The notes under the pieces were generated by a model. It was not told the DNA's origin and ran no database searches. It was given only the letters and a program-made list of their open reading frames with translations. Position numbers and translations under genes: made by a program. A stretch of 64,000 nt of DNA from a candidate division FCPU426 bacterium. GTDB lineage: Bacteria; Oederibacteriota; JAAXVQ01; JAUVAV01. Shown here piece by piece: positions 8,307 through 54,720 of this stretch. The DNA lies in the NCBI GenBank assembly GCA_040756875.1, contig JBFLYH010000003.1, forward strand, positions 1-64,000. Direction: 5' to 3'. Position 1 is the first letter of the stretch, and the number at the start of each line of letters is the position of its first letter.

Positions 8307-8416
8307 GATCAGGTGAGCAGGTGACCGCAGTTGAGCCTGCCCTGGCCTTTCCGGCTACTGTTCTCCTGATCGACTGCTCAACTGCTCCAAAAATTCGCCC
8401 TTCAGGGCGATTTTTT
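8307..8416 (-). repeat. tRNA-trailer structured repeat, copy after tRNA-Trp
   Basis: GAGCAGGT/GAGCAGTT-like 8-mers inverted against ACTGCTC units, plus AAAAATTCGCC/GGCGATTTTT hairpin abutting the CCA. Confidence 0.75.
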
Positions 8417-8725: not shown

Positions 8726-9928
<1,203 letters not shown>

Positions 9929-10087: not shown

Positions 10088-10163
10088 TGGAGCCCAAGAC
10101 CGGGATTGAACCGGTGACCCCGTCCTTACCAAGGACGTGCTCTACCGACTGAGCTACCTGGGC
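10088..10163 (-). tRNA. tRNA-Thr (GGT)
   Basis: GCCCAGG...GTCC-TTGGTAA-GGAC...TTCAAT...CTTGGGCTCCA. Confidence 0.97.
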
Positions 10164-10200: not shown

Positions 10201-10229
10201 AGGATAACAAAAGGCTTTTATCCTGTCAA
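10201..10229 (-). promoter_or_regulatory. sigma70 promoter for tRNA-Thr(GGU)-tuf
   Basis: Minus strand TTGACA, 17 nt, TATCCT with TGn extended -10. Confidence 0.7.
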
Positions 10230-10292: not shown

Positions 10293-11171
10293 TCACTTGC
10301 GCCAGGTGCGCCAACGGCGATGGCCCCAGAACCATTGTTCCGGATCAGCCCATACCCAACCGCCGATAATCCGGTTCATGGCGGCAACCGCCTGCGTGAC
10401 GGCATCGCGCTTTGATTCCGTCTGTTCCAAAACCAATTCGGGTTCGATCAGCACCTGCAATGAGCCGTCGGCCAGGCGCCTGCAGTGGAAAGGAATCAAA
10501 GGCGCACCGGTTCTGAGGGCCAAATTGGCCGCTCCCAGCGACGACCCGGCCGGTTTGCCCATAAAATCAACATACACACCGCCGGTTTCCACCTGGTCGA
10601 CCAGCATGCCCACGGTTCCCCCGGCTTTGATGTGCGACAGCATGTGATAGGCGCAAGCGTGCCGGGGATTGTCCGCGATCAATCCGATGCCCAGCCGGCC
10701 GACCAGCCAGCGATAGAGGCGCGAGATCGCGGGCTGAGACGGATCGCGAAAAAGGAATTTCAGATCGCAAAACGGAACCACGGCCGCAGCCATCAGGATG
10801 AAATTTCCCACATGGCCAGAAAAAAGGATAAGCCCCTTGTTCTTGGCCAAGGCAGTCCGCAGATGTTCCTCCCCTTCCACGCGCACCAGGCGGAATACCC
10901 TGCGGGGGGCGCCCGCTGCCTGCAGGCTTTCGATAAGCACGCCGCCCAGATGGGCGAAATTATCCTCCGCCAGCCGCTGCCGGGCTTCAGGCGACAGTTT
11001 TTCCTGGTAGATCATCTGCAGATTGTCCACTGCCACCTGCTTCCGGCTCGCCATGCGGCGAAACACCCTACGGCCCAGGAAACGGCCGAACGCCAGCACC
11101 CAGGCATGGGGCAACAATGCCAAAACGGCGATCAGCCCGCGGGTTATCAGCCAAAAAATAAAGTAGCGCAT
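10293..11171 (-). CDS. LpxL/HtrB-family (lipid A / lysophospholipid) acyltransferase
   Basis: N-terminal TM, VEGEEHL, FSGHVGNF, MLVDQ, VDFMGKPA, GAPLIP, PEQWFWGHRRW. Confidence 0.85.
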   Translation of the reverse strand: MRYFIFWLITRGLIAVLALLPHAWVLAFGRFLGRRVFRRMASRKQVAVDNLQMIYQEKLSPEARQRLAEDNFAHLGGVLIESLQAAGAPRRVFRLVRVEGEEHLRTALAKNKGLILFSGHVGNFILMAAAVVPFCDLKFLFRDPSQPAISRLYRWLVGRLGIGLIADNPRHACAYHMLSHIKAGGTVGMLVDQVETGGVYVDFMGKPAGSSLGAANLALRTGAPLIPFHCRRLADGSLQVLIEPELVLEQTESKRDAVTQAVAAMNRIIGGWVWADPEQWFWGHRRWRTWRK

Positions 11172-11177
11172 ATACCG

Positions 11178-12332
11178 TCAGCTCCTTGTGAACACATGGG
11201 CGTGATTGTCGCCAAAATGATCGGTGGTGACCGAAAGCACCACCTCGCCGTCAAATCCGCCGGCCTCCGCGGGAATACGCACAGCCGGCAGGTCCGGATC
11301 AGGAACATGCCAGGGCGAGGCCGGCCAGCGCCGGGTCTGCAGCGCCAGGCAGGCACAGACCGCGCCCATGGCCTCGGCGGCGCCGCTGACATATCCGGTC
11401 AATCCGGAAAAAGCGTAGAGGGGAACGGCCGCCAGGCCCTTGCCAAACACCGCGTCCAGGGCGAGGGCCAATCTGCGGTCCTCGTCAACCAGTCCGCTGG
11501 CAGAAACCACGATCCCCCGGACATGACCGGGCTCCAGCCCGGCCCGCTCCAGCGCCAACTGTACGGCGCGTTGCAATTCACGGCCCTGCGGGTCCAGGGT
11601 GTCGAACCCCCGGGCGTCATACGTGCTGGCGTGCGCCCGGTAACGGGCGATGACCCGCGCTTTTCGCCCGCGGGCCCGTTCGCCGGGTTCCAAAAACAAA
11701 CCGGCCGCGCCTTCGCCCAGACGGCAGCCGTTGCGCCCGAGGCTCAGGGGGCGCGGAACCCCGTCCGCCCACTGCGCCACGGTCTGGCGTTGCGGCCCGG
11801 CGGCTTCCTCCAGGCCTGTGGCCAGCATGGCATCGGCGCGGCCCAGGCATAAGGCATCGAACGCCTCGGCCAGCGAACCGCTGCCGCACGTCGTGTTGTT
11901 ATGCCCGCGCAAGCCGGTTTCCAGGCAGGCGAATCCGGCGCTGGCGTTCAGCACTGTGCTGGGAAACTCCATGGGATTGGCCCGCTGCGGCCCGTGCGCA
12001 AACACCCGCCGGCTGAATTTCAAAATGCTGTCCAAGGTGCCTAAATTCGTGCTGCTGCACAATCCCACCCGGTCCGGATCAGGCACTGCCCCTGGGCCCA
12101 GGCCGGCCATGAGCTTGAGAATCATGACCGTCAGCATTTGGGACATGCGGTCCATGCGCCGCACGTGATCCTCCGGGATGAGCTCCTCGGGGGTAAAGGG
12201 GGCCAGCGGCACCACGCCCGGCGCCTCAATGGTCAGTTGGGGGGCGCGGCACGCCCAGGCCCAAAAATCCTCGGGGGTCTGGCCGGCTTGATGGAGCATG
12301 CCCAGTCCGGTGACCACCAGTTCCGGGGTCAT
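11178..12332 (-). CDS. Ketosynthase-like protein lacking catalytic His motifs (chain-length-factor/FabF2-like)
   Basis: KS fold motifs RRMDRMSQM, NPMEFPSTVLNASAG, GEGAAGLFLE; HGTGT replaced by SASGL and GH replaced by GY; ATGA overlap with upstream KS. Confidence 0.8.
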   Translation of the reverse strand: MTPELVVTGLGMLHQAGQTPEDFWAWACRAPQLTIEAPGVVPLAPFTPEELIPEDHVRRMDRMSQMLTVMILKLMAGLGPGAVPDPDRVGLCSSTNLGTLDSILKFSRRVFAHGPQRANPMEFPSTVLNASAGFACLETGLRGHNNTTCGSGSLAEAFDALCLGRADAMLATGLEEAAGPQRQTVAQWADGVPRPLSLGRNGCRLGEGAAGLFLEPGERARGRKARVIARYRAHASTYDARGFDTLDPQGRELQRAVQLALERAGLEPGHVRGIVVSASGLVDEDRRLALALDAVFGKGLAAVPLYAFSGLTGYVSGAAEAMGAVCACLALQTRRWPASPWHVPDPDLPAVRIPAEAGGFDGEVVLSVTTDHFGDNHAHVFTRS

Positions 12333-13558
12333 TTCCCTCCCTCCAAACCGAAAATCAGGCTGACGTTGTTGCCCGCAAAGCCGAAGGAATTGGAAAGCAC
12401 GGTCTTGACCGCCAGGAGCCGGGCTTGGTTGGGCACGTAATCCAGGTCGCACTCCGGGTCCCCGGGCGTGAAATTCAACGTGGGTGGAAGCATGCCCTGG
12501 AGCAGGGTCAGGACCGAAGCCACGGCTTCCACCGCTCCGGCCGCACCCATGCAGTGCCCCACCGCCGCCTTGATGGAAGAGAGCGGAAGGCGTCGGGCCC
12601 GTTCCCCGAAAACGCGTTTAACGGCCAGGGTCTCCATGCGGTCGTTCTGCGGAGTCCCGGTCCCATGGGTGTTGATGTAGTCAATGCGCTCCGGCGGCAA
12701 GCCGGCGTCCGCCAGTGCGGCGCGCATGGCCAGCTCGGCTCCCTTCCCTTCCGGATCAGGCGCCGTGATATGGTGCGCGTCATCCGAGAGTCCGGTGCCG
12801 GCCAGCACGGCCAAAGGCTTGGCGCCGCGGGCCAGGGCGGTCTCACGCGCCTCCAGGATCAGGATGCCGCTGCCTTCACCGATCACCAATCCTTCGCGGT
12901 TGGGGGAAAACGGCCGGCAAGCGGTCGCGGCGGCCGAACGCATGGCGTTGAACCCGGAAAAAGTGTCCTGGCTGAAGGCATCCGCCCCCCCGGTGACCAC
13001 GGCATCCGCGTAGCCCAGGCGGATCAAATCGCCGGCCCGGCTGATGGCCGTCCCCGAGGAGGCGCAAGCCGGACATGGCGTGGCCACGGGACCGCGAAAC
13101 CCGAACAACGAAGCGATGTACCGGGACAGGCTGGACAGGATAAAGACCGGATAGGTCGCTAAAATATCCAGGGGGCGCCCCTGCCGGATTTCACCGGCCA
13201 CGGCTTGCTCCAGGGTTAAAATGCCTCCCTGCAGCGTGCCGATGACCACGGCCGTCCGTTCTGCGGGCAGCGTTCCTCCGGCCTGCTCCACCGCTTCGCG
13301 GCAGGCGCTCACCGCCAAGTCGTACACACGGTCCGGATGTCCGGTTTCAGGCAATGCCTCCCGGATTTCGCAGCCCAGGTGGGTCCGCCACTCCGTAGCG
13401 TCAAAGCTCGCCACCGGCCCCACGGCCGATTCGGCGGCGATCAAACGCCTCCAAAATTCGCGGGCATTGGGGCCCAGACCCGTGACTGCGCCTAAACCGG
13501 TGATGACCACGGCGCGGTCGGAACGTCGGTCAAGAGCAGGATGGGAAAGTGAATTCAT
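12329..13558 (-). CDS. Beta-ketoacyl-ACP synthase (FabF-like, intact Cys-His-His)
   Basis: VVITGLGAV, PACASSG, CRPFS, DAHHITAP, THGTGT, KAAVGHCMGAAG, SNSFGFAG. Confidence 0.92.
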   Translation of the reverse strand: MNSLSHPALDRRSDRAVVITGLGAVTGLGPNAREFWRRLIAAESAVGPVASFDATEWRTHLGCEIREALPETGHPDRVYDLAVSACREAVEQAGGTLPAERTAVVIGTLQGGILTLEQAVAGEIRQGRPLDILATYPVFILSSLSRYIASLFGFRGPVATPCPACASSGTAISRAGDLIRLGYADAVVTGGADAFSQDTFSGFNAMRSAAATACRPFSPNREGLVIGEGSGILILEARETALARGAKPLAVLAGTGLSDDAHHITAPDPEGKGAELAMRAALADAGLPPERIDYINTHGTGTPQNDRMETLAVKRVFGERARRLPLSSIKAAVGHCMGAAGAVEAVASVLTLLQGMLPPTLNFTPGDPECDLDYVPNQARLLAVKTVLSNSFGFAGNNVSLIFGLEGGK

Positions 13559-13595
13559 GGCTGTTGGCTGACGGAGGCGCGGACGCGACCCGGGC

Positions 13596-13865
13596 TCATG
13601 CGCCCGGCTGGCTTTGCCCTTTTTTACGCTGCAGAAACGCGGCGATCGCGTTGACGGAATTAAGCTGTTGCACTTCCTCGTCCTGGATGCGAAGGTCAAA
13701 CTGCTCCTCCAAAACCGTCACCAGGGTCAGGATATCCACTGAATCGAGGTTAAGACCTCCGCCGAAGAAGGAATCACCGTCCGGGATGCTTTCGGGTTCG
13801 CGTTTGAGTTTCAAGCCTTCGATCAGAACCCGTTTGATTTTGGTTTTAAGTTCCTGCTCGGACAT
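13596..13865 (-). CDS. Acyl carrier protein
   Basis: GLNLDSVDIL phosphopantetheine Ser motif, LEEQFDLRI; 89 aa. Confidence 0.9.
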   Translation of the reverse strand: MSEQELKTKIKRVLIEGLKLKREPESIPDGDSFFGGGLNLDSVDILTLVTVLEEQFDLRIQDEEVQQLNSVNAIAAFLQRKKGQSQPGA

Positions 13866-15021
13866 CCCCGTTTTCCTCCCCTGGCTTGCGCGTCTCCGCA
13901 CCCAATGATCCTAGCAACCGGTTGGCCAACGCGTCCAGCAGAAATTCATCCGATCCTTCCACCAGGCTGAAGACGCGCGCTTGGCGGAACCACCGTTCCC
14001 AGGGATGGCCCTGCAGGTAGCCTGTTCCCCCGGCCAGTTGCAAAGCCCGGTTCGCCACGTTCAGCGCGGCCCGGCTGGCGTAAATCTTGGCCAGAGCCAC
14101 CGCCTGATTCCGTTCCTCGCCGCCTTCGGCCCATTGCCGCCACGCTTCATTTATCAATCCCCGGCAGGCTTCCACGTCCAGTTTCATTTCGGCCAGCGCA
14201 AATTGAACGGTCTGCCAATCCGCCAGCCGTCCGCTCCCGCGCGGCTGCCGCGCGTGGCGGACCGAAGCTTCAAGCATGGTCTGGCTCATGGCTAGGGCCA
14301 CCGTGCCGACGCACAACCGGCCGAGTTGCAGCCCTTCGTTAGCGATCTTCAACCCCCAGCCCGGCCTGCCCAGCATCTCCTCGGCACCCACTCGCACTTC
14401 GTCGAGAAAAACATCTGCCAGCACCAAGCCGGGAAACGCCATCTTCGCCCTGGGCGGGCTGAAACGCACGCCCTTCCGGTCTTTGGGGATTAAAAACACC
14501 GCAGGCCGGCTGGCATGCTCATCGCGTTGAAGCGTGGCCGCCACCAGATAATAATCCGCCACACCGGCCAGGGAGATCAAGTTTTTTTCCCCGGAAAGAA
14601 CATACCCGTCCCCTGCCGGAAGGGCGCGGGTGACGAACCCCCCGGAATCCCGCGCTTTGAGTTCCGAGTAAGCGAACGCGCACAGCGCCTCGCCGCGGAT
14701 CAACCGCGGCAGCAGGTCCTCAATCATCCGTCCCTGCCCATGGCTGGCCACCAAGTGCGTGGTAAATACGGGAATTCCCATGACCACAGCCAAGGTCGGC
14801 GACAACAAGCCCACCTGAAAGATCAGGTCCCTGAGCACTTCGCACGACAAACCCCATCCGCCCTGGGTTTCGGGGATGGCTACGCCAAACGCCCGTTCAG
14901 CCCCCAAAACAGCCAGATAATCGCGCGGAAAGGATTCGGCGGTTTCTATAGTTTCGGCAAAGGGGGCGATGTGTGTCTGCAGGTACTGCCGGGCATGGGC
15001 GAGAAACTCAGTCGGTTGCAT
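13846..15021 (-). CDS. Acyl-CoA/acyl-ACP dehydrogenase family protein
   Basis: AFAYSE, YVLSGEKNLIS, QTVQFALAEM, QLAGGTGY, RVFSLVEGSDE (catalytic Glu position). Confidence 0.9.
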   Translation of the reverse strand: MQPTEFLAHARQYLQTHIAPFAETIETAESFPRDYLAVLGAERAFGVAIPETQGGWGLSCEVLRDLIFQVGLLSPTLAVVMGIPVFTTHLVASHGQGRMIEDLLPRLIRGEALCAFAYSELKARDSGGFVTRALPAGDGYVLSGEKNLISLAGVADYYLVAATLQRDEHASRPAVFLIPKDRKGVRFSPPRAKMAFPGLVLADVFLDEVRVGAEEMLGRPGWGLKIANEGLQLGRLCVGTVALAMSQTMLEASVRHARQPRGSGRLADWQTVQFALAEMKLDVEACRGLINEAWRQWAEGGEERNQAVALAKIYASRAALNVANRALQLAGGTGYLQGHPWERWFRQARVFSLVEGSDEFLLDALANRLLGSLGAETRKPGEENGDVRAGT

Positions 15022-15054
15022 GGGTTTTACCAACGATCCGACCCGGATGAGAAG

Positions 15055-15129
15055 TGGAGCGGGGGACGGGGTTCGAACCCGCGACGTTCAGCTTGGAAGG
15101 CTGACATTCTGCCACTGAATTACCCCCGC
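15055..15129 (-). tRNA. tRNA-Gly (TCC)
   Basis: GCGGGGG...TCAGC-CTTCCAA-GCTGA...TTCGAAC...CCCCCGCTCCA. Confidence 0.97.
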
Positions 15130-15248
15130 GTAAAGTGCCTACGGTCTAAGTATAGCAGAAGGGCGAATTGAATAACTCGCCCCAAAAGGATATTTGAGTA
15201 CTAATCGGATAGGCGAAAAGGCTTATAACTGTGCCGACTTGAGAAATA

Positions 15249-15345
15249 GATCAATAGGGCAATAGACCGCAATGGAATCTTCTTTCTATTGCTCTATTTT
15301 CTATTGTTCCATTGCTCTGCCTTTTTCGCCTCCGGCGAAAAAGGC
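15249..15345 (-). repeat. tRNA-trailer structured repeat, copy after tRNA-Tyr
   Basis: GATCAATA/GGGCAATA/GACCGCAAT units versus TATTGCTC units, plus GCCTTTTTCGCC/GGCGAAAAAGGC hairpin. Confidence 0.75.
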
Positions 15346-15432
15346 TGGTGGACAGGGAAGGATTTGAACCTTCGTAGGGCAGTGCCCGACAGATTTACAG
15401 TCTGTTGCCATTGACCGCTCGGCCACCTGTCC
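15346..15432 (-). tRNA. tRNA-Tyr (GTA)
   Basis: GGACAGG...ACAGA-CTGTAAA-TCTGT, long variable arm, ...CCTGTCCACCA. Confidence 0.97.
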
Positions 15433-15629
15433 ACAAGGGTGGAGCCCCCCGGCGACCGCAGGAAGTCCCTTTAGAGAGCGGGCCCGGGGCACCTATCCTG
15501 CCATGCGTATTAAGCATGGCAGGCGGCGACATCCCCGCAGCAGGAGATTGGCATTCCTCCTGCGAAGGGGGTAGATAGTTTATCCAAAGCTTAAAAGCCT
15601 GTAAAGGCTAATTTTCAGGCCTGTTTACT

Positions 15630-15657
15630 GCAGGGGCGTTTAATTGAACGCCCTTAC
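15630..15657. repeat. REP-like palindrome copy 2
   Basis: GCAGGGGCGTTTAATTGAACGCCCTTAC. Confidence 0.8.
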
Positions 15658-15666
15658 AAGAAACCT

Positions 15667-15762
15667 GATCAGTTGAGCAGTTGACCGCAGTCGAGCTTTT
15701 TCTACTGTTCACCTGTTCCACTGCTCGACTGCTCTGCAAATTTTCGCTTTGCGAAAATTTGC
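15667..15762 (-). repeat. tRNA-trailer structured repeat, copy after the duplicated tRNA-Thr(UGU) 3' end
   Basis: GATCAGTT-GAGCAGTT-GACCGCAGT versus ACTGCTC units, plus perfect 12-bp hairpin GCAAATTTTCGC/GCGAAAATTTGC. Confidence 0.75.
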
Positions 15763-15777
15763 TGGAGCCACCGGTCG
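15762..15777 (-). repeat. Exact 16-bp duplicate of tRNA-Thr(UGU) 3' end (att-like)
   Basis: CTGGAGCCACCGGTCG at 15762-15777 and 15862-15877. Confidence 0.85.
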
Positions 15778-15862
15778 CCCCGCCTGCGCGGGACTCCCTA
15801 AGATAAATCGCGGACCCGAAGTTATATACTGCAAACGGCATTCTTACTTTCGCGAGTTATTC

Positions 15863-15937
15863 TGGAGCCACCGGTCGGAATCGGACCGACGACCATCCGC
15901 TTACAAGGCGGGAGCTCTACCACTGAGCTACGGTGGC
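15863..15937 (-). tRNA. tRNA-Thr (TGT)
   Basis: GCCACCG...CCGC-CTTGTAA-GCGG...T-loop TCCGATT...CGGTGGCTCCA. Confidence 0.93.
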
Positions 15938-52413: not shown

Positions 52414-52532
52414 ACCACGAAGGGCACGAAGCAGAGCTTCCCCGGCATAAAATATTTTCCGGACAGCCTTGGGTTGGTGGTTTTAACCCCGGCCTTTGCT
52501 TCCCTTCTTTCTTCCTGCGTGTCCTTCGTGGT
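52414..52532. repeat. Inverted repeat element overlapping the 3' end of the WaaL-GT9 gene
   Basis: ACCACGAAGGGCACGAAG (52414-52431) versus CTGCGTGTCCTTCGTGGT (52515-52532), 16/18 complementary. Confidence 0.6.
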
Positions 52533-54720
52533 CCGCTTTTTTTCCGCTTTTGAGGATGGCAGCGAGCGCTTCCAGCACCAGCGCGGGCGTCACGTTGCGC
52601 CAGCATTGGGTGTCATCGCACGCGTCGCGGTGGCAGGGCCAGCACGACGGCGGCGCGTGCAGGGCCTTGTGGCCATTGCGCCCCGGATAAGCGAACCACA
52701 CCCTGGGGTCTCCGGGCCCGAACAAGCCGAGCGTGGGCGTGCCCACGGCCGGGCCCATGTGCATGGGAAACGCATCGTTCGAGACTACGGCCGCGCACTG
52801 TCGCCACAGGGCAGCCAGCTGGCCGGGCGTCAGCCCAACCGCGGCTTGCGAGCCTTTGCCGCCCAGGCGCTGGTAGGCCTTGAGCAACTCCCGCTCCAGG
52901 GGACCGAACACGAACACCGGCCGCAGTTTGAACCGGCCCTGCGCTTCGGCTGCCGCCTGCACAAAATTTTCCAGCGGCCAACGCTTGGCCGGATGGCTGC
53001 CGCCGGCGAAAAAGCCGACCAGCCTGCCCGGACGCAGGCCGCGCTGTTTGAGCCAGGCTTTGACCCACGCTTCATCCTGCCCGTCCACTTCCCAGCGCGG
53101 CCGCTGCGAAAGCTGCTTGAGGCCCAGCAGACGGAGCAGGTCATAATACGACTCCCAGGCCGGCCGCGGCCCGGGCCGGTCCGCATGAGTGACCGCGTCC
53201 AGCAGCCAGTCCCAGCCGCGGACCTGGGGCCCCAGCCGGAAGCGGGCTCCGCTGAACGCGGCCAGCAGCACGGTGCGGGGATTTCCGAAGAGGTCGCAGG
53301 TCGCGTCGTAATCCCCGCGCCGGATCGCGAGCAGTGTGCGCCACCAGTCAGCCAGGTCGCGCCGCGCCAGGACCAGGACCTGGCGCCAGCCGGCCTTGCC
53401 GCCGGCCGCGGCCGCGCTGGCAGGCTCGGTCAGCAGGTCGATCTCCGCGGCCGGATAGTCGCGCGCGAGCAGGCGCGGCACGCCGGAGGCGAGCAGTACG
53501 TCGCCTAAAAAGCGGGGCCGCAAAAACAGCACGCGCGGGGCAACGGGCAGCAGGCTGTCCGCGGCGCCCAGGGCCGGCAGCAGCCCGGCGAGGAAATATA
53601 CGAGGGTAATGACCTGCGAAGTCCCGAAATTGAACTCGAACAATCCGTTGACTGCAAAACCCAGAAAGGCCAGGCTGAGCCCCAGCGCGGTCCCGGCGCG
53701 CTCCGGCGCCGAGAAACGCAGGCGCCGCCAGAGGCCCAGGCCCCAGGCCAGCAGGGCGACGATCCACCACGCATACAGGCCCGCAGCGGCCAGGCCGCCG
53801 TTGATGGCCATTTGCATCAGGGTGTTGTGCACGTGCGGCGGCCGCTGCTCCAGGGCCCGGGGATCAGCCACGCTGCCGTACACTTCGGACAGATTGTCCA
53901 CGCCATACCCGAGCAGGGGGTTCCGCTGGATCAGTTTCAGGCCCGAGGCCCACATGTATTTGCGTTCCACGTTGCTGGAATGGTATTTGGAGGTGAGCGT
54001 CCACACGCGCTGAGCCACGGGCGAGCGCGGGAACAGGACCAGCCCCAGGACCGCAGCCGCCGCGGCCACGGCCACCCAGCGCCAGTCGCGGATCAACCCC
54101 AGCATTACCAGGGCCACGGCCGCGCCGATCCAGGAGGAACGGGTGTAGGTCAGGAGCAGGGCTGTCGCAAGGAGCAGCACGCAGGCCAGCCAGGCCCAAC
54201 GGTGGGGCGCGCGCGCGTACACCCAGCGGCTGGCCGCCAGAATCAGGGCCAGCATGAACATGCCCCCAGCTGCCATATAATCGCCGGAGAACGACTGGGC
54301 GCGGCCGCCGTCCAGGTGCAGCAGGTGCATGACGATCGCCCAGACAGCGCACAGCGAAGCGCCCAGCAGGAACCAGGTGGTGAGGCGCTCGGCTTTCAGG
54401 GGATGCGACACCAAGCCGGCTGTCGCGAAGAAGGCCAGCATCAGGCCGACTTTGCGCACGCCGAACAGGCTGGGGTTGAGCCGGCCGGCCAGGAAAGAGG
54501 ACAGGACCAGCACGGCGGCCAGGAGCAGCAAAGGCAGGGTCACTGGCGTGTCCGGCAGCTTCCAGCCGCGGCGCCAGGCCATGCCTAGAACCCAGGCTGC
54601 GGCCGCGAGCCAGATGAAATTCTGGAGCGAAATGCTGGCCACGGCGAACAGGGCGAAAGCGGTCAGTGACCAGCGCCCCAGCCTTTCGGCCGCCAGTTGC
54701 CGGGAGTCCGGGCGAGCCAC
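52483..54720 (-). CDS. O-antigen ligase-like (WaaL) domain fused to GT9 glycosyltransferase
   Basis: Multi-TM N-half with TYTRSSW, ERKYMW..G, PLLGYG, HVHN; C-half RFLGDVLL, AKRWP, SNDAFPMH, LFGP. Confidence 0.85.
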   Translation of the reverse strand: MARPDSRQLAAERLGRWSLTAFALFAVASISLQNFIWLAAAAWVLGMAWRRGWKLPDTPVTLPLLLLAAVLVLSSFLAGRLNPSLFGVRKVGLMLAFFATAGLVSHPLKAERLTTWFLLGASLCAVWAIVMHLLHLDGGRAQSFSGDYMAAGGMFMLALILAASRWVYARAPHRWAWLACVLLLATALLLTYTRSSWIGAAVALVMLGLIRDWRWVAVAAAAAVLGLVLFPRSPVAQRVWTLTSKYHSSNVERKYMWASGLKLIQRNPLLGYGVDNLSEVYGSVADPRALEQRPPHVHNTLMQMAINGGLAAAGLYAWWIVALLAWGLGLWRRLRFSAPERAGTALGLSLAFLGFAVNGLFEFNFGTSQVITLVYFLAGLLPALGAADSLLPVAPRVLFLRPRFLGDVLLASGVPRLLARDYPAAEIDLLTEPASAAAAGGKAGWRQVLVLARRDLADWWRTLLAIRRGDYDATCDLFGNPRTVLLAAFSGARFRLGPQVRGWDWLLDAVTHADRPGPRPAWESYYDLLRLLGLKQLSQRPRWEVDGQDEAWVKAWLKQRGLRPGRLVGFFAGGSHPAKRWPLENFVQAAAEAQGRFKLRPVFVFGPLERELLKAYQRLGGKGSQAAVGLTPGQLAALWRQCAAVVSNDAFPMHMGPAVGTPTLGLFGPGDPRVWFAYPGRNGHKALHAPPSCWPCHRDACDDTQCWRNVTPALVLEALAAILKSGKKADHEGHAGRKKGSKGRG

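Follow-up and report, generated by a model that had tools for sequence, protein, structure and literature searches.

A 64,000-nucleotide window of contig JBFLYH010000003.1 (positions 1 to 64,000, forward strand), from a candidate division FCPU426 bacterium with a genome of 3.22 Mb in 7 contigs, carries five co-oriented genes for acyl-chain metabolism. These encode a flavoprotein of the acyl-CoA dehydrogenase (ACAD) family, an acyl carrier protein (ACP), an intact ketoacyl synthase (KS), a degenerate KS that resembles a chain-length factor (CLF), and a second LpxL-family acyltransferase, here termed LpxL2. Comparison with related genomes revealed that the genes do not constitute a fixed five-gene cassette but a layered unit, in which LpxL2 belongs to an order, ACP-KS-CLF to a family, and the ACAD to a genus. 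The function proposed here is supply of a dedicated acyl-ACP for a second late acylation of lipid A, a proposal that we hold to be about evenly balanced. The five genes are as follows.

15021..13846, minus strand: ACAD-family flavoprotein gene, 391 amino acids from ATG (alternative TTG start at 15033); Pfam Acyl-CoA_dh_N/M/1
13865..13596, minus strand: ACP gene, 89 amino acids; PP-binding at 8.4e-9, LDSVD serine motif
13564..12329, minus strand: intact KS gene, 411 amino acids; ketoacyl-synt N at 3.9e-32 and C at 8.7e-39
12332..11178, minus strand: degenerate KS (CLF-like) gene, 384 amino acids; weak ketoacyl-synt matches at 2.7e-13 and 1.2e-9
11171..10293, minus strand: LpxL-family transferase gene (LpxL2), 292 amino acids; PF03279 at 1.6e-44

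A previous reading made from the sequence only had described five tightly spaced genes of one orientation with these domains, and the open reading frames (ORFs), all on the minus strand, and their Pfam matches bear this out. From the coordinates, the ACAD and ACP genes overlap by ∼20 nt, the ACP-KS gap is 31 nt, the KS and CLF genes overlap by 4 nt, and the gap between CLF and transferase is 6 nt.

Distribution of the ACP-KS-CLF Module and of LpxL2

In a collection of 5.8 billion proteins, where the 8000 candidates sharing most words were scored, 7 relatives of the CLF-like protein were found at 41–76% identity, followed by generic FabF at ≤34%. Scans for the same protein yielded 3 true loci in 185,579 species genomes and 1 in JGI metagenomes. 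Of the 99 phylum genomes searched, 8 (the source genome included) carry true orthologues, scoring at least 254 bits, and all of these belong to one family (8 of its 11 genomes); the best match in every other phylum genome was at most 167 bits. The order ACP-KS-CLF-transferase was observed in every readable locus, spanning 8 genomes and 1 metagenome contig (the window, L016, L017, L018, L020, L033, L034, L035, and L036, of which L017 and L036 are cut), and the 4-nt overlap between KS stop and CLF start was retained in 8 of 8 loci. The sequence-only reading had made its proposal depend on co-conservation elsewhere, which was thus found for these four genes.

Sequences of the LpxL2 clade (at least 364 bits, with the next best match at 198 bits) were present in 14 of the 99 genomes, comprising 10 of the 11 in family f1 and all 4 in family f2. 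These 14 represent all but one of the 15 genomes of a single order, and the clade was found nowhere else among the genomes of the phylum. In six of them (G025, G031, G019, G020, G021, and G022), LpxL2 stands alone after tRNA-Gly(tcc). A 54-residue remnant of the CLF C terminus (43% identical) lies just upstream of LpxL2 in G031, so at least one of the LpxL2-alone states is a secondary loss. LpxL2 is older and wider than the ACP-KS-CLF module, and its “alone” and “with module” forms are interspersed in a tree of PF03279 proteins. Ten alignment columns separate the two forms; one of them, the Glu of the conserved EG motif, is retained by all 8 sequences with the module and altered in all 4 of the “alone” form. 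With few, related sequences, this contrast is a lead alone.

The ACAD gene was present in two of the nine module-bearing loci, those of the window and of a congener (L016). In six others the ACP gene directly follows tRNA-Gly, and one locus is cut. The ACAD is a genus-level addition to the module, and its earlier placement as a core part replacing the alcohol dehydrogenase of the rhizobial system had to be abandoned. What stands of the dedicated five-gene cassette proposed previously is the co-conserved ACP-KS-CLF-LpxL2 set; the presence of the ACAD in only two of nine loci, together with the six genomes in which LpxL2 is alone, does not agree with that proposal.

The KS and Its Degenerate Partner

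Catalytic residues were read from alignments to the genome's own FabF and to the FabF of PDB entry 8z5e. The cassette KS retains Cys (ACASS), His (HGTGT), Lys, His (GHCMG), and the gating Phe, and the Cys/His/Lys/His set is kept in 7 of 7 KS orthologues. The CLF-like protein lacks both His residues, the positions of which are occupied by Ser/Ala and Tyr, and also lacks the Lys; the same holds for 8 of 8 orthologues. The Cys position reads C, C, S, S, G, A, S, and G across the 8 orthologues, with C in the source genome. Gln at this position, a feature of aromatic type II polyketide synthases (PKSs), is absent from the 8 sequences. The pair thus consists of one subunit with a Cys-His-His triad and one partner without catalytic residues, as in the KS/CLF heterodimer class, and the previous description of one intact triad and one KS without both His residues was accurate.

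The 4-nt overlap of the two genes points to coupled translation. A predicted KS-CLF complex scored 0.96, a value that shows likeness rather than binding since KS dimers are well represented among solved structures; the best control scored 0.00, the partner had a predicted local distance difference test value of at least 90, and contacts agreed to at least 94%. Complex scores of that mark were reached by 116 of 157 solved complexes and by 2 of 215 mismatched pairs. From the predicted complex together with the conserved overlap, we infer that KS and CLF would form a heterodimer in which only the KS is condensing. Matches to the CLF-like protein in a protein atlas were to “ketoacyl synthase” clusters alone. 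The possibility that the CLF-like gene is a decaying pseudogene was rejected, given that 8 loci retain an open frame, an alignment of 8 sequences contains 57 invariant columns, and its fold is confidently predicted.

Further KS genes were noted elsewhere in the genome. A minus-strand operon on contig C2 (∼733.5–744 kb; L012 and L013) encodes NfeD, SPFH, ACP, KS, CLF, three Lnt-like CN_hydrolase proteins (554–584 amino acids), KS, CLF, a 159-residue ORF, and a PlsC-type acyltransferase. Two further private KS/CLF pairs are thus linked in this operon to acyltransferases of other families, and a private chain plus transferase may be a theme that the genome uses repeatedly. On contig C1 (∼910.5–919.1 kb; L011), FabF-like genes (510 and 297 bits) accompany genes for a short-chain dehydrogenase/reductase (SDR), an HMG-CoA synthase-like protein, an enoyl-CoA hydratase, a second SDR, and an aminotransferase, a set that resembles a β-branching cassette of polyketide or lipid pathways.

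Housekeeping Counterparts and Lipopolysaccharide Context

The cassette KS, ACP, and transferase are separate from the housekeeping FabF, AcpP, and LpxL of the same genome. The housekeeping FabF (637 bits) is encoded elsewhere in a plsX-fabH-fabD-fabG-acpP-fabF operon, together with a canonical AcpP (L015:7744-7989). The cassette KS lies outside this operon, is 41% identical to the FabF, and fails the FabF model TIGR03150 (381 bits against a cut-off of 493.75); scores above this cut-off, 637 and 510 bits, are reached at two further loci. The concern attached to the sequence-only reading, that this KS might be the only housekeeping FabF of the genome, can thus be set aside. The genome has two PF03279 genes in total, and the second is a canonical LpxL with the motif GHLGNWE in a kdsD-kdsC-lpxL-lptC-lptA-lptB operon.

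Genes for lipopolysaccharide (LPS) had been located at 51–61 kb of the window, and domain matches (GT9, Wzy_C, PMT_2, GT2, and GT4) agree with this. The region is an LPS core cluster and encodes four ORFs of the GT9 heptosyltransferase family, an ArnT-like PMT_2 protein, and GT2 and GT4 proteins. One of the GT9 ORFs (52486–54720, minus strand; 745 amino acids) is fused to an O-antigen ligase domain (Wzy_C), and the G + C content of the cluster is high, at 0.67–0.70.

The ACP and the ACAD

The cassette ACP scored below every ACP equivalog cut-off, and its orthologues are 56–84% identical across 7 loci. The ACAD fold is present in the flavoprotein, and the catalytic Glu of its EG motif aligns with that of ACADs in the PDB. 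No NCBIfam equivalog is reached (top score 176 bits, against a cut-off of 640), and the protein also falls below the acyl-ACP dehydrogenase models MbtN (85 against 700 bits) and RedW (127 against 650 bits). An origin as a copy of the genome's other ACAD was discounted: the two are 28% identical, and the gene for the other is followed by those for EtfB and EtfA. A second ACAD-bearing lineage is hinted at by P0125 (49% identical to the ACAD) and P0133 (53% identical to LpxL2), for both of which the longest contig is 8325 nt.

Sequence Features of LpxL2

LpxL2 matches PF03279 with 152.7 bits, against a gathering score of 22.3, and has a hydrophobic N terminus. Its motif reads GHVGNFI, as compared with GHLGNWE in the housekeeping LpxL, and alignment of 12 LpxL2 sequences gives H-x-[GS]-N-F-[I/V/M/L/Y], as compared with H[LI]GNWE in the housekeeping LpxLs of 6 genomes. 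Two solved entries for LpxM of Acinetobacter baumannii, 5kn7 and 5knk, differ by Glu/Ala at exactly this motif position. The LpxL2 clade is monophyletic (support 100), and the housekeeping LpxLs form a separate clade (support 99). The nearest outgroup of LpxL2 consists of second PF03279 paralogues from family f3 (L061, L062, L066, and L067; Shimodaira-Hasegawa-like approximate likelihood ratio test (SH-aLRT) 91), the motif of which, H-[YVF]-G-[GSP]-F-P, likewise lacks the HX4E Glu. There may be a wider Glu-less subgroup of the LpxL family; within PF03279, the motif without Glu identifies a subgroup that has yet to be studied.

Proposed Pathway and Alternatives

The proposed pathway has three layers. 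At its base, LpxL2 is fixed inside a tRNA-Thr/Tyr/Gly...tRNA-Thr-tuf operon throughout one order, which belongs to an uncultured phylum. A single family of this order has, ahead of LpxL2, a dedicated ACP together with a KS/CLF pair that is probably coupled in translation. The intact KS, in a heterodimer with its dead partner, would elongate a chain bound to this ACP. The steps of malonyl loading, keto-reduction, dehydration, and enoyl reduction would be supplied by type II fatty acid synthesis (FAS II); most simply, FabD, FabG, FabZ, and an enoyl reductase would act on the private ACP, as FAS II enzymes partly do in the rhizobia. Of these, fabD and fabG are present in the housekeeping fab operon. 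LpxL2 would then move the chain onto lipid A as a secondary acyl group, alongside the canonical LpxL. Within the source genus, the ACAD, translationally coupled to the ACP, would modify the chain at C2–C3 by desaturation or enoyl reduction. We infer lipid A as the acceptor, and likewise the length, chemistry, and degree of reduction of the chain.

Several observations weigh against this pathway. No ketoreductase or dehydratase, and no reductive enzyme, is encoded in any of the nine loci, in agreement with the absence of a ketoreductase and dehydratase noted previously for the cassette, and full reduction of the chain is therefore an assumption. The ACAD scores 163 bits with solved acyl-CoA dehydrogenases, as compared with ∼90 bits for the two solved carrier protein-linked members (prolyl-ACP dehydrogenase and FkbI). 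Given that LpxL2 stands alone in six genomes, it can work without a dedicated ACP, so the module may have another role. The remaining objections concern the acceptor and the product and belong to the first two of the following alternatives.

LpxL2 might acylate an envelope molecule other than lipid A, such as a glycolipid, a lyso-lipid, or an outer-membrane protein (OMP), in the manner of PatA, which acylates phosphatidylinositol mannosides. PF03279 is not restricted to lipid A enzymes and includes, for example, PatA. In 12 of 12 LpxL2 sequences, HX4(D/E) is without its acidic residue, which the housekeeping LpxL keeps as Glu; the His is invariant, and the +5 residue is Ile, Val, Met, Leu, or Tyr. 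Invariant residues H120 and D192 of LpxL2 align with residues 126 and 200 of solved PatA, which we take to be the PatA catalytic pair. LpxL2 also falls far below the cut-offs for LpxL/LpxP (TIGR02207, 118 against 297.8 bits) and LpxM (TIGR02208, 50.7 against 336 bits), and an OMP gene follows LpxL2 in five relatives. However, the best structural and sequence match of LpxL2 is still LpxM (1e-12, as compared with 1e-6 for PatA), and its top NCBIfam models are all lipid A late acyltransferases. The machinery for LPS is present, and two PF03279 genes is the number that many bacteria use for two secondary acylations. On balance, an acceptor other than lipid A is considered unlikely.

The ACP-KS-CLF set might alternatively constitute a minimal type II PKS-like unit of the aryl polyene (APE) type, which would make an unsaturated or β-keto chain in place of a saturated fatty acid; LpxL2 would anchor this chain in the outer membrane, the ACAD adding or shifting a double bond. 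Here, the relevant evidence is a quick tree of 41 KS-family proteins, in which few sequences were sampled and long branches are placed with uncertainty. The cassette KS orthologues form one clade (SH-aLRT 96) that lies near the KSs of the genome's other KS/CLF pairs and not with FabF; the housekeeping FabF groups with Escherichia coli FabF. The sister of this clade is E. coli ApeO (SH-aLRT 96), the KS partner of the CLF ApeC. The cassette CLFs (support 100) fall within a 97-supported group of other degenerate partners that includes FabF2XL, on a very long branch. The placement of the cassette KS next to ApeO would also fit a polyene-type product. The cluster is furthermore without an enoyl reductase, and an ACAD is present in the source genus. 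By contrast, ApeO sits on a long branch in a small and quick tree, and the cassette KS is about equally close to FabF (41%) and ApeO (37%). The ketoreductase, two dehydratases, ligase, thioesterase, and exporter of APE clusters occur in none of the nine loci, and ApeD, the APE acyltransferase, is PlsC-type rather than a member of PF03279. A minimal APE-type unit is accordingly regarded as improbable.

That the module is a spare set for FAS II elongation (a second ACP and KS) serving bulk membrane fatty acids, with an adjacency to LpxL2 that has no functional meaning, is very improbable: it would accommodate both the six genomes in which LpxL2 lacks the module and the varying cargo of the tRNA-Gly/tRNA-Thr interval in relatives (unknown 351- and 504-residue ORFs and an OMP gene), but 8 genomes preserve the order ACP-KS-CLF-LpxL2, with CLF identities of 31–76%, a dead KS partner marks specialized KS/CLF systems and not bulk fatty acid synthesis, and module loss took the form of a deletion up to the LpxL2 start that left the 54-residue CLF remnant.

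A more radical version of acyl supply to lipid A is also conceivable, although we give it little credence. The module would provide LpxL2 with a chain that FAS II never makes (3-oxo, 2-enoyl with the ACAD, or polyunsaturated), the Glu-less LpxL2 would put this polyketide-like acyl group on lipid A, and the amount would be tied to growth rate because the genes would be read with the tRNA-EF-Tu operon. Were this so, relatives with LpxL2, with the module added, and with the ACAD added would represent a three-step series of outer-membrane chemistries.

Genomic Setting of the Cassette

The cassette is flanked by tRNA-Gly(tcc) and tRNA-Thr(ggt) and therefore lies inside a tRNA-Thr/Tyr/Gly/Thr-tuf-tRNA-Trp-nusG arrangement. 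The neighboring features are listed below.

15863..15937, minus strand: tRNA-Thr(tgt), first gene of the cluster
15346..15432, minus strand: tRNA-Tyr(gta), same cluster
15055..15129, minus strand: tRNA-Gly(tcc), immediately upstream of the cassette
10201..10229, minus strand: sigma-70-like promoter match, TTGACA-17-TATCCT with TG ahead of the -10, located between the stop codon of LpxL2 and tRNA-Thr(ggt)
10088..10163, minus strand: tRNA-Thr(ggt), immediately downstream of the cassette and upstream of tuf
8726..9928, minus strand: tuf (EF-Tu, from its translation), downstream flank of the tRNA cluster; 88–95% identity in related loci

At every related locus that extends far enough, tRNA-Gly(tcc) precedes the module or LpxL2. 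The distance from the 3′ end of tRNA-Gly to the ACAD start is 21–33 nt, and no terminator match was found between them; the tRNA promoter therefore probably reads the ACAD gene. The sigma-70-like site is a consensus match alone, being one of 3 sites found where 1.8 were expected. A search of Rfam over 7–17 kb of the window returned five tRNAs alone above the gathering score. Recent horizontal insertion of the cassette was ruled out, as its G + C content of 0.58–0.64 matches that of the flanks and the site is shared across an order.

The spacers of the tRNA cluster are long, at 216 nt (15130–15345) and 430 nt (15433–15862). Each contains an element of ∼100 nt that consists of a hairpin followed by GCAGAGCA...TTGCGGTC...TGATC; it begins directly after the 3′ end of a tRNA or after a 16-nt sequence that duplicates the 3′ end of tRNA-Thr, and the similarity between the two copies is 66%. 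Partial copies (82–96% identical, 23–79 nt) were detected at a dozen or more other sites in the genome, one of them just downstream of tRNA-Trp (8307–8336 of the window), and the element looks like a dispersed small repeat. Further along the window, an ORF resembling ribosomal protein L17 (18359–19087, minus strand; 242 amino acids) has a long C-terminal tail rich in Lys, Glu, and Asp.

In five relatives, the OMP gene 3′ of LpxL2 occupies the tRNA slot. The conserved secreted protein encoded after LpxL2 in relatives was located at the following positions.

L033:7502-8590
L034:359-1585
L035:3217-5025
L039:14-1126

This protein has an N-terminal domain of ∼350 residues without a Pfam match and, in G028 and G030, a C-terminal OmpA domain. 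The orthologue in the source genome is encoded elsewhere (C1:450418-451992) and is 51–62% identical. Within genus g6, a 351-residue ORF with a signal-like N terminus and no Pfam family lies between CLF and LpxL2 (L018:3537-4592 and L035:6130-7185; copies 89% identical); the top protein-atlas score for the L018 copy, 0.81, was not usable.

Significance

No publication on such a cassette was found in the open-access literature, and the literature on Firestonebacteria and FCPU426 among the matches listed consisted, as far as its accessible text extends, of surveys. To our knowledge, detailed descriptions of a dedicated acyl-chain supply to lipid A come solely from the rhizobia and their relatives, where the dedicated chain shapes membrane stiffness and host interaction. 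If the cassette is an independent version of such a supply, the combination of a private ACP, a KS with a dead KS partner, and a late acyltransferase would be a recurrent solution, encountered here in an uncultured phylum that bears LPS. Specialists in lipid A would not find the principle itself surprising, and there is no cultured host. The unusual features are the fixed site in the tRNA-tuf operon, the Glu-less transferase motif, and a series of genomes in which the number of added layers is zero, one, or two. A position inside a tRNA-tuf operon is unusual for a lipid gene and suggests high, growth-coupled expression, and the natural series of presence and absence makes the contribution of each layer testable.

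Comparison with Known Systems

With regard to the transferase, LpxL2 shares with LpxL, LpxM, and LpxP the Pfam family, length, hydrophobic N terminus, conserved His, and DQ and EG motifs. It differs in the missing Glu of HX4E, in forming a separate clade, and in its linkage to a private ACP/KS pair.

For the APE system, the annotated cluster of E. coli CFT073 served as the reference. The accessible text of one report describes ApeO-ApeC as a KS/CLF heterodimer (PMC8358021). In common with the cassette, the APE cluster pairs a KS with a catalytically dead protein, includes a dedicated ACP, and passes its product to a membrane acyltransferase. Identities are 32% between ApeF and the cassette ACP and 37% between ApeO and the cassette KS, as compared with 41% for FabF. 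The APE cluster differs in having its own ketoreductase, two dehydratases, acyl-AMP ligase, thioesterase, LolA-like protein, and MMPL exporter, and ApeC is short (240 amino acids). Its acyltransferase ApeD carries the PlsC-type motif NHPTLID, and the PF03279 matches in CFT073 are LpxL, LpxP, and LpxM alone.

The rhizobial system was compared by scoring the acpXL cluster of Sinorhizobium meliloti (PLSDB record CP090106.1) on NCBIfam models. Mutants in the Sinorhizobium acpXL-lpxXL cluster lose the C28 acyl chain of lipid A, according to the accessible part of one report (PMC11901934). The acpXL-fabZXL-fabF2XL-fabF1XL-adhA2XL-lpxXL cluster and the cassette have in common a dedicated ACP, an intact and a degenerate FabF-like protein, and a co-oriented PF03279 transferase; FabF2XL is itself degenerate (82 bits to the fabF model). 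The equivalog scores are as follows.

AcpXL, NF005079 (cut-off 83): S. meliloti, 189.5 bits; cassette ACP, no match among its 14 hits at E ≤ 0.001
FabF2XL, NF005084 (cut-off 320): S. meliloti, 618 bits; cassette CLF, 19.9 bits
FabF1XL, NF005076 (cut-off 629): S. meliloti, 770 bits; cassette KS, 296.5 bits
LpxXL, NF005120 (cut-off 273): S. meliloti, 492.5 bits; LpxL2, 130.7 bits

NF005120 is at the same time the best NCBIfam model for LpxL2. Identities are low, at 37% between the cassette KS and FabF1XL and 26% between LpxL2 and LpxXL. The gene order is KS then CLF in the cassette and the reverse in the rhizobia. The rhizobial dehydratase FabZXL and Zn-dehydrogenase AdhA2XL both lack a counterpart in the window cassette, and the extra ORFs of related loci have OmpA or no Pfam match. 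Both LpxXL and LpxL2 read GNF, whereas the housekeeping LpxLs of the phylum and most other members of the tree that show the motif read GNW or GSW. LpxXL nevertheless retains the Glu (HSGNFE) that LpxL2 lacks, and the two do not group together in the PF03279 tree. Unlike the rhizobial cluster, the cassette lies inside a tRNA-tuf operon. The remaining steps of fatty acid synthesis are borrowed in the rhizobial system, as is proposed for the cassette. Since the layout is parallel and no rhizobial equivalog cut-off is reached, the earlier characterization of the cassette as analogous to the acpXL-lpxXL cluster but distinct from it holds. The cassette is best read from these scores as an independent analogue that arose separately from the rhizobial system and not as a member of its family.

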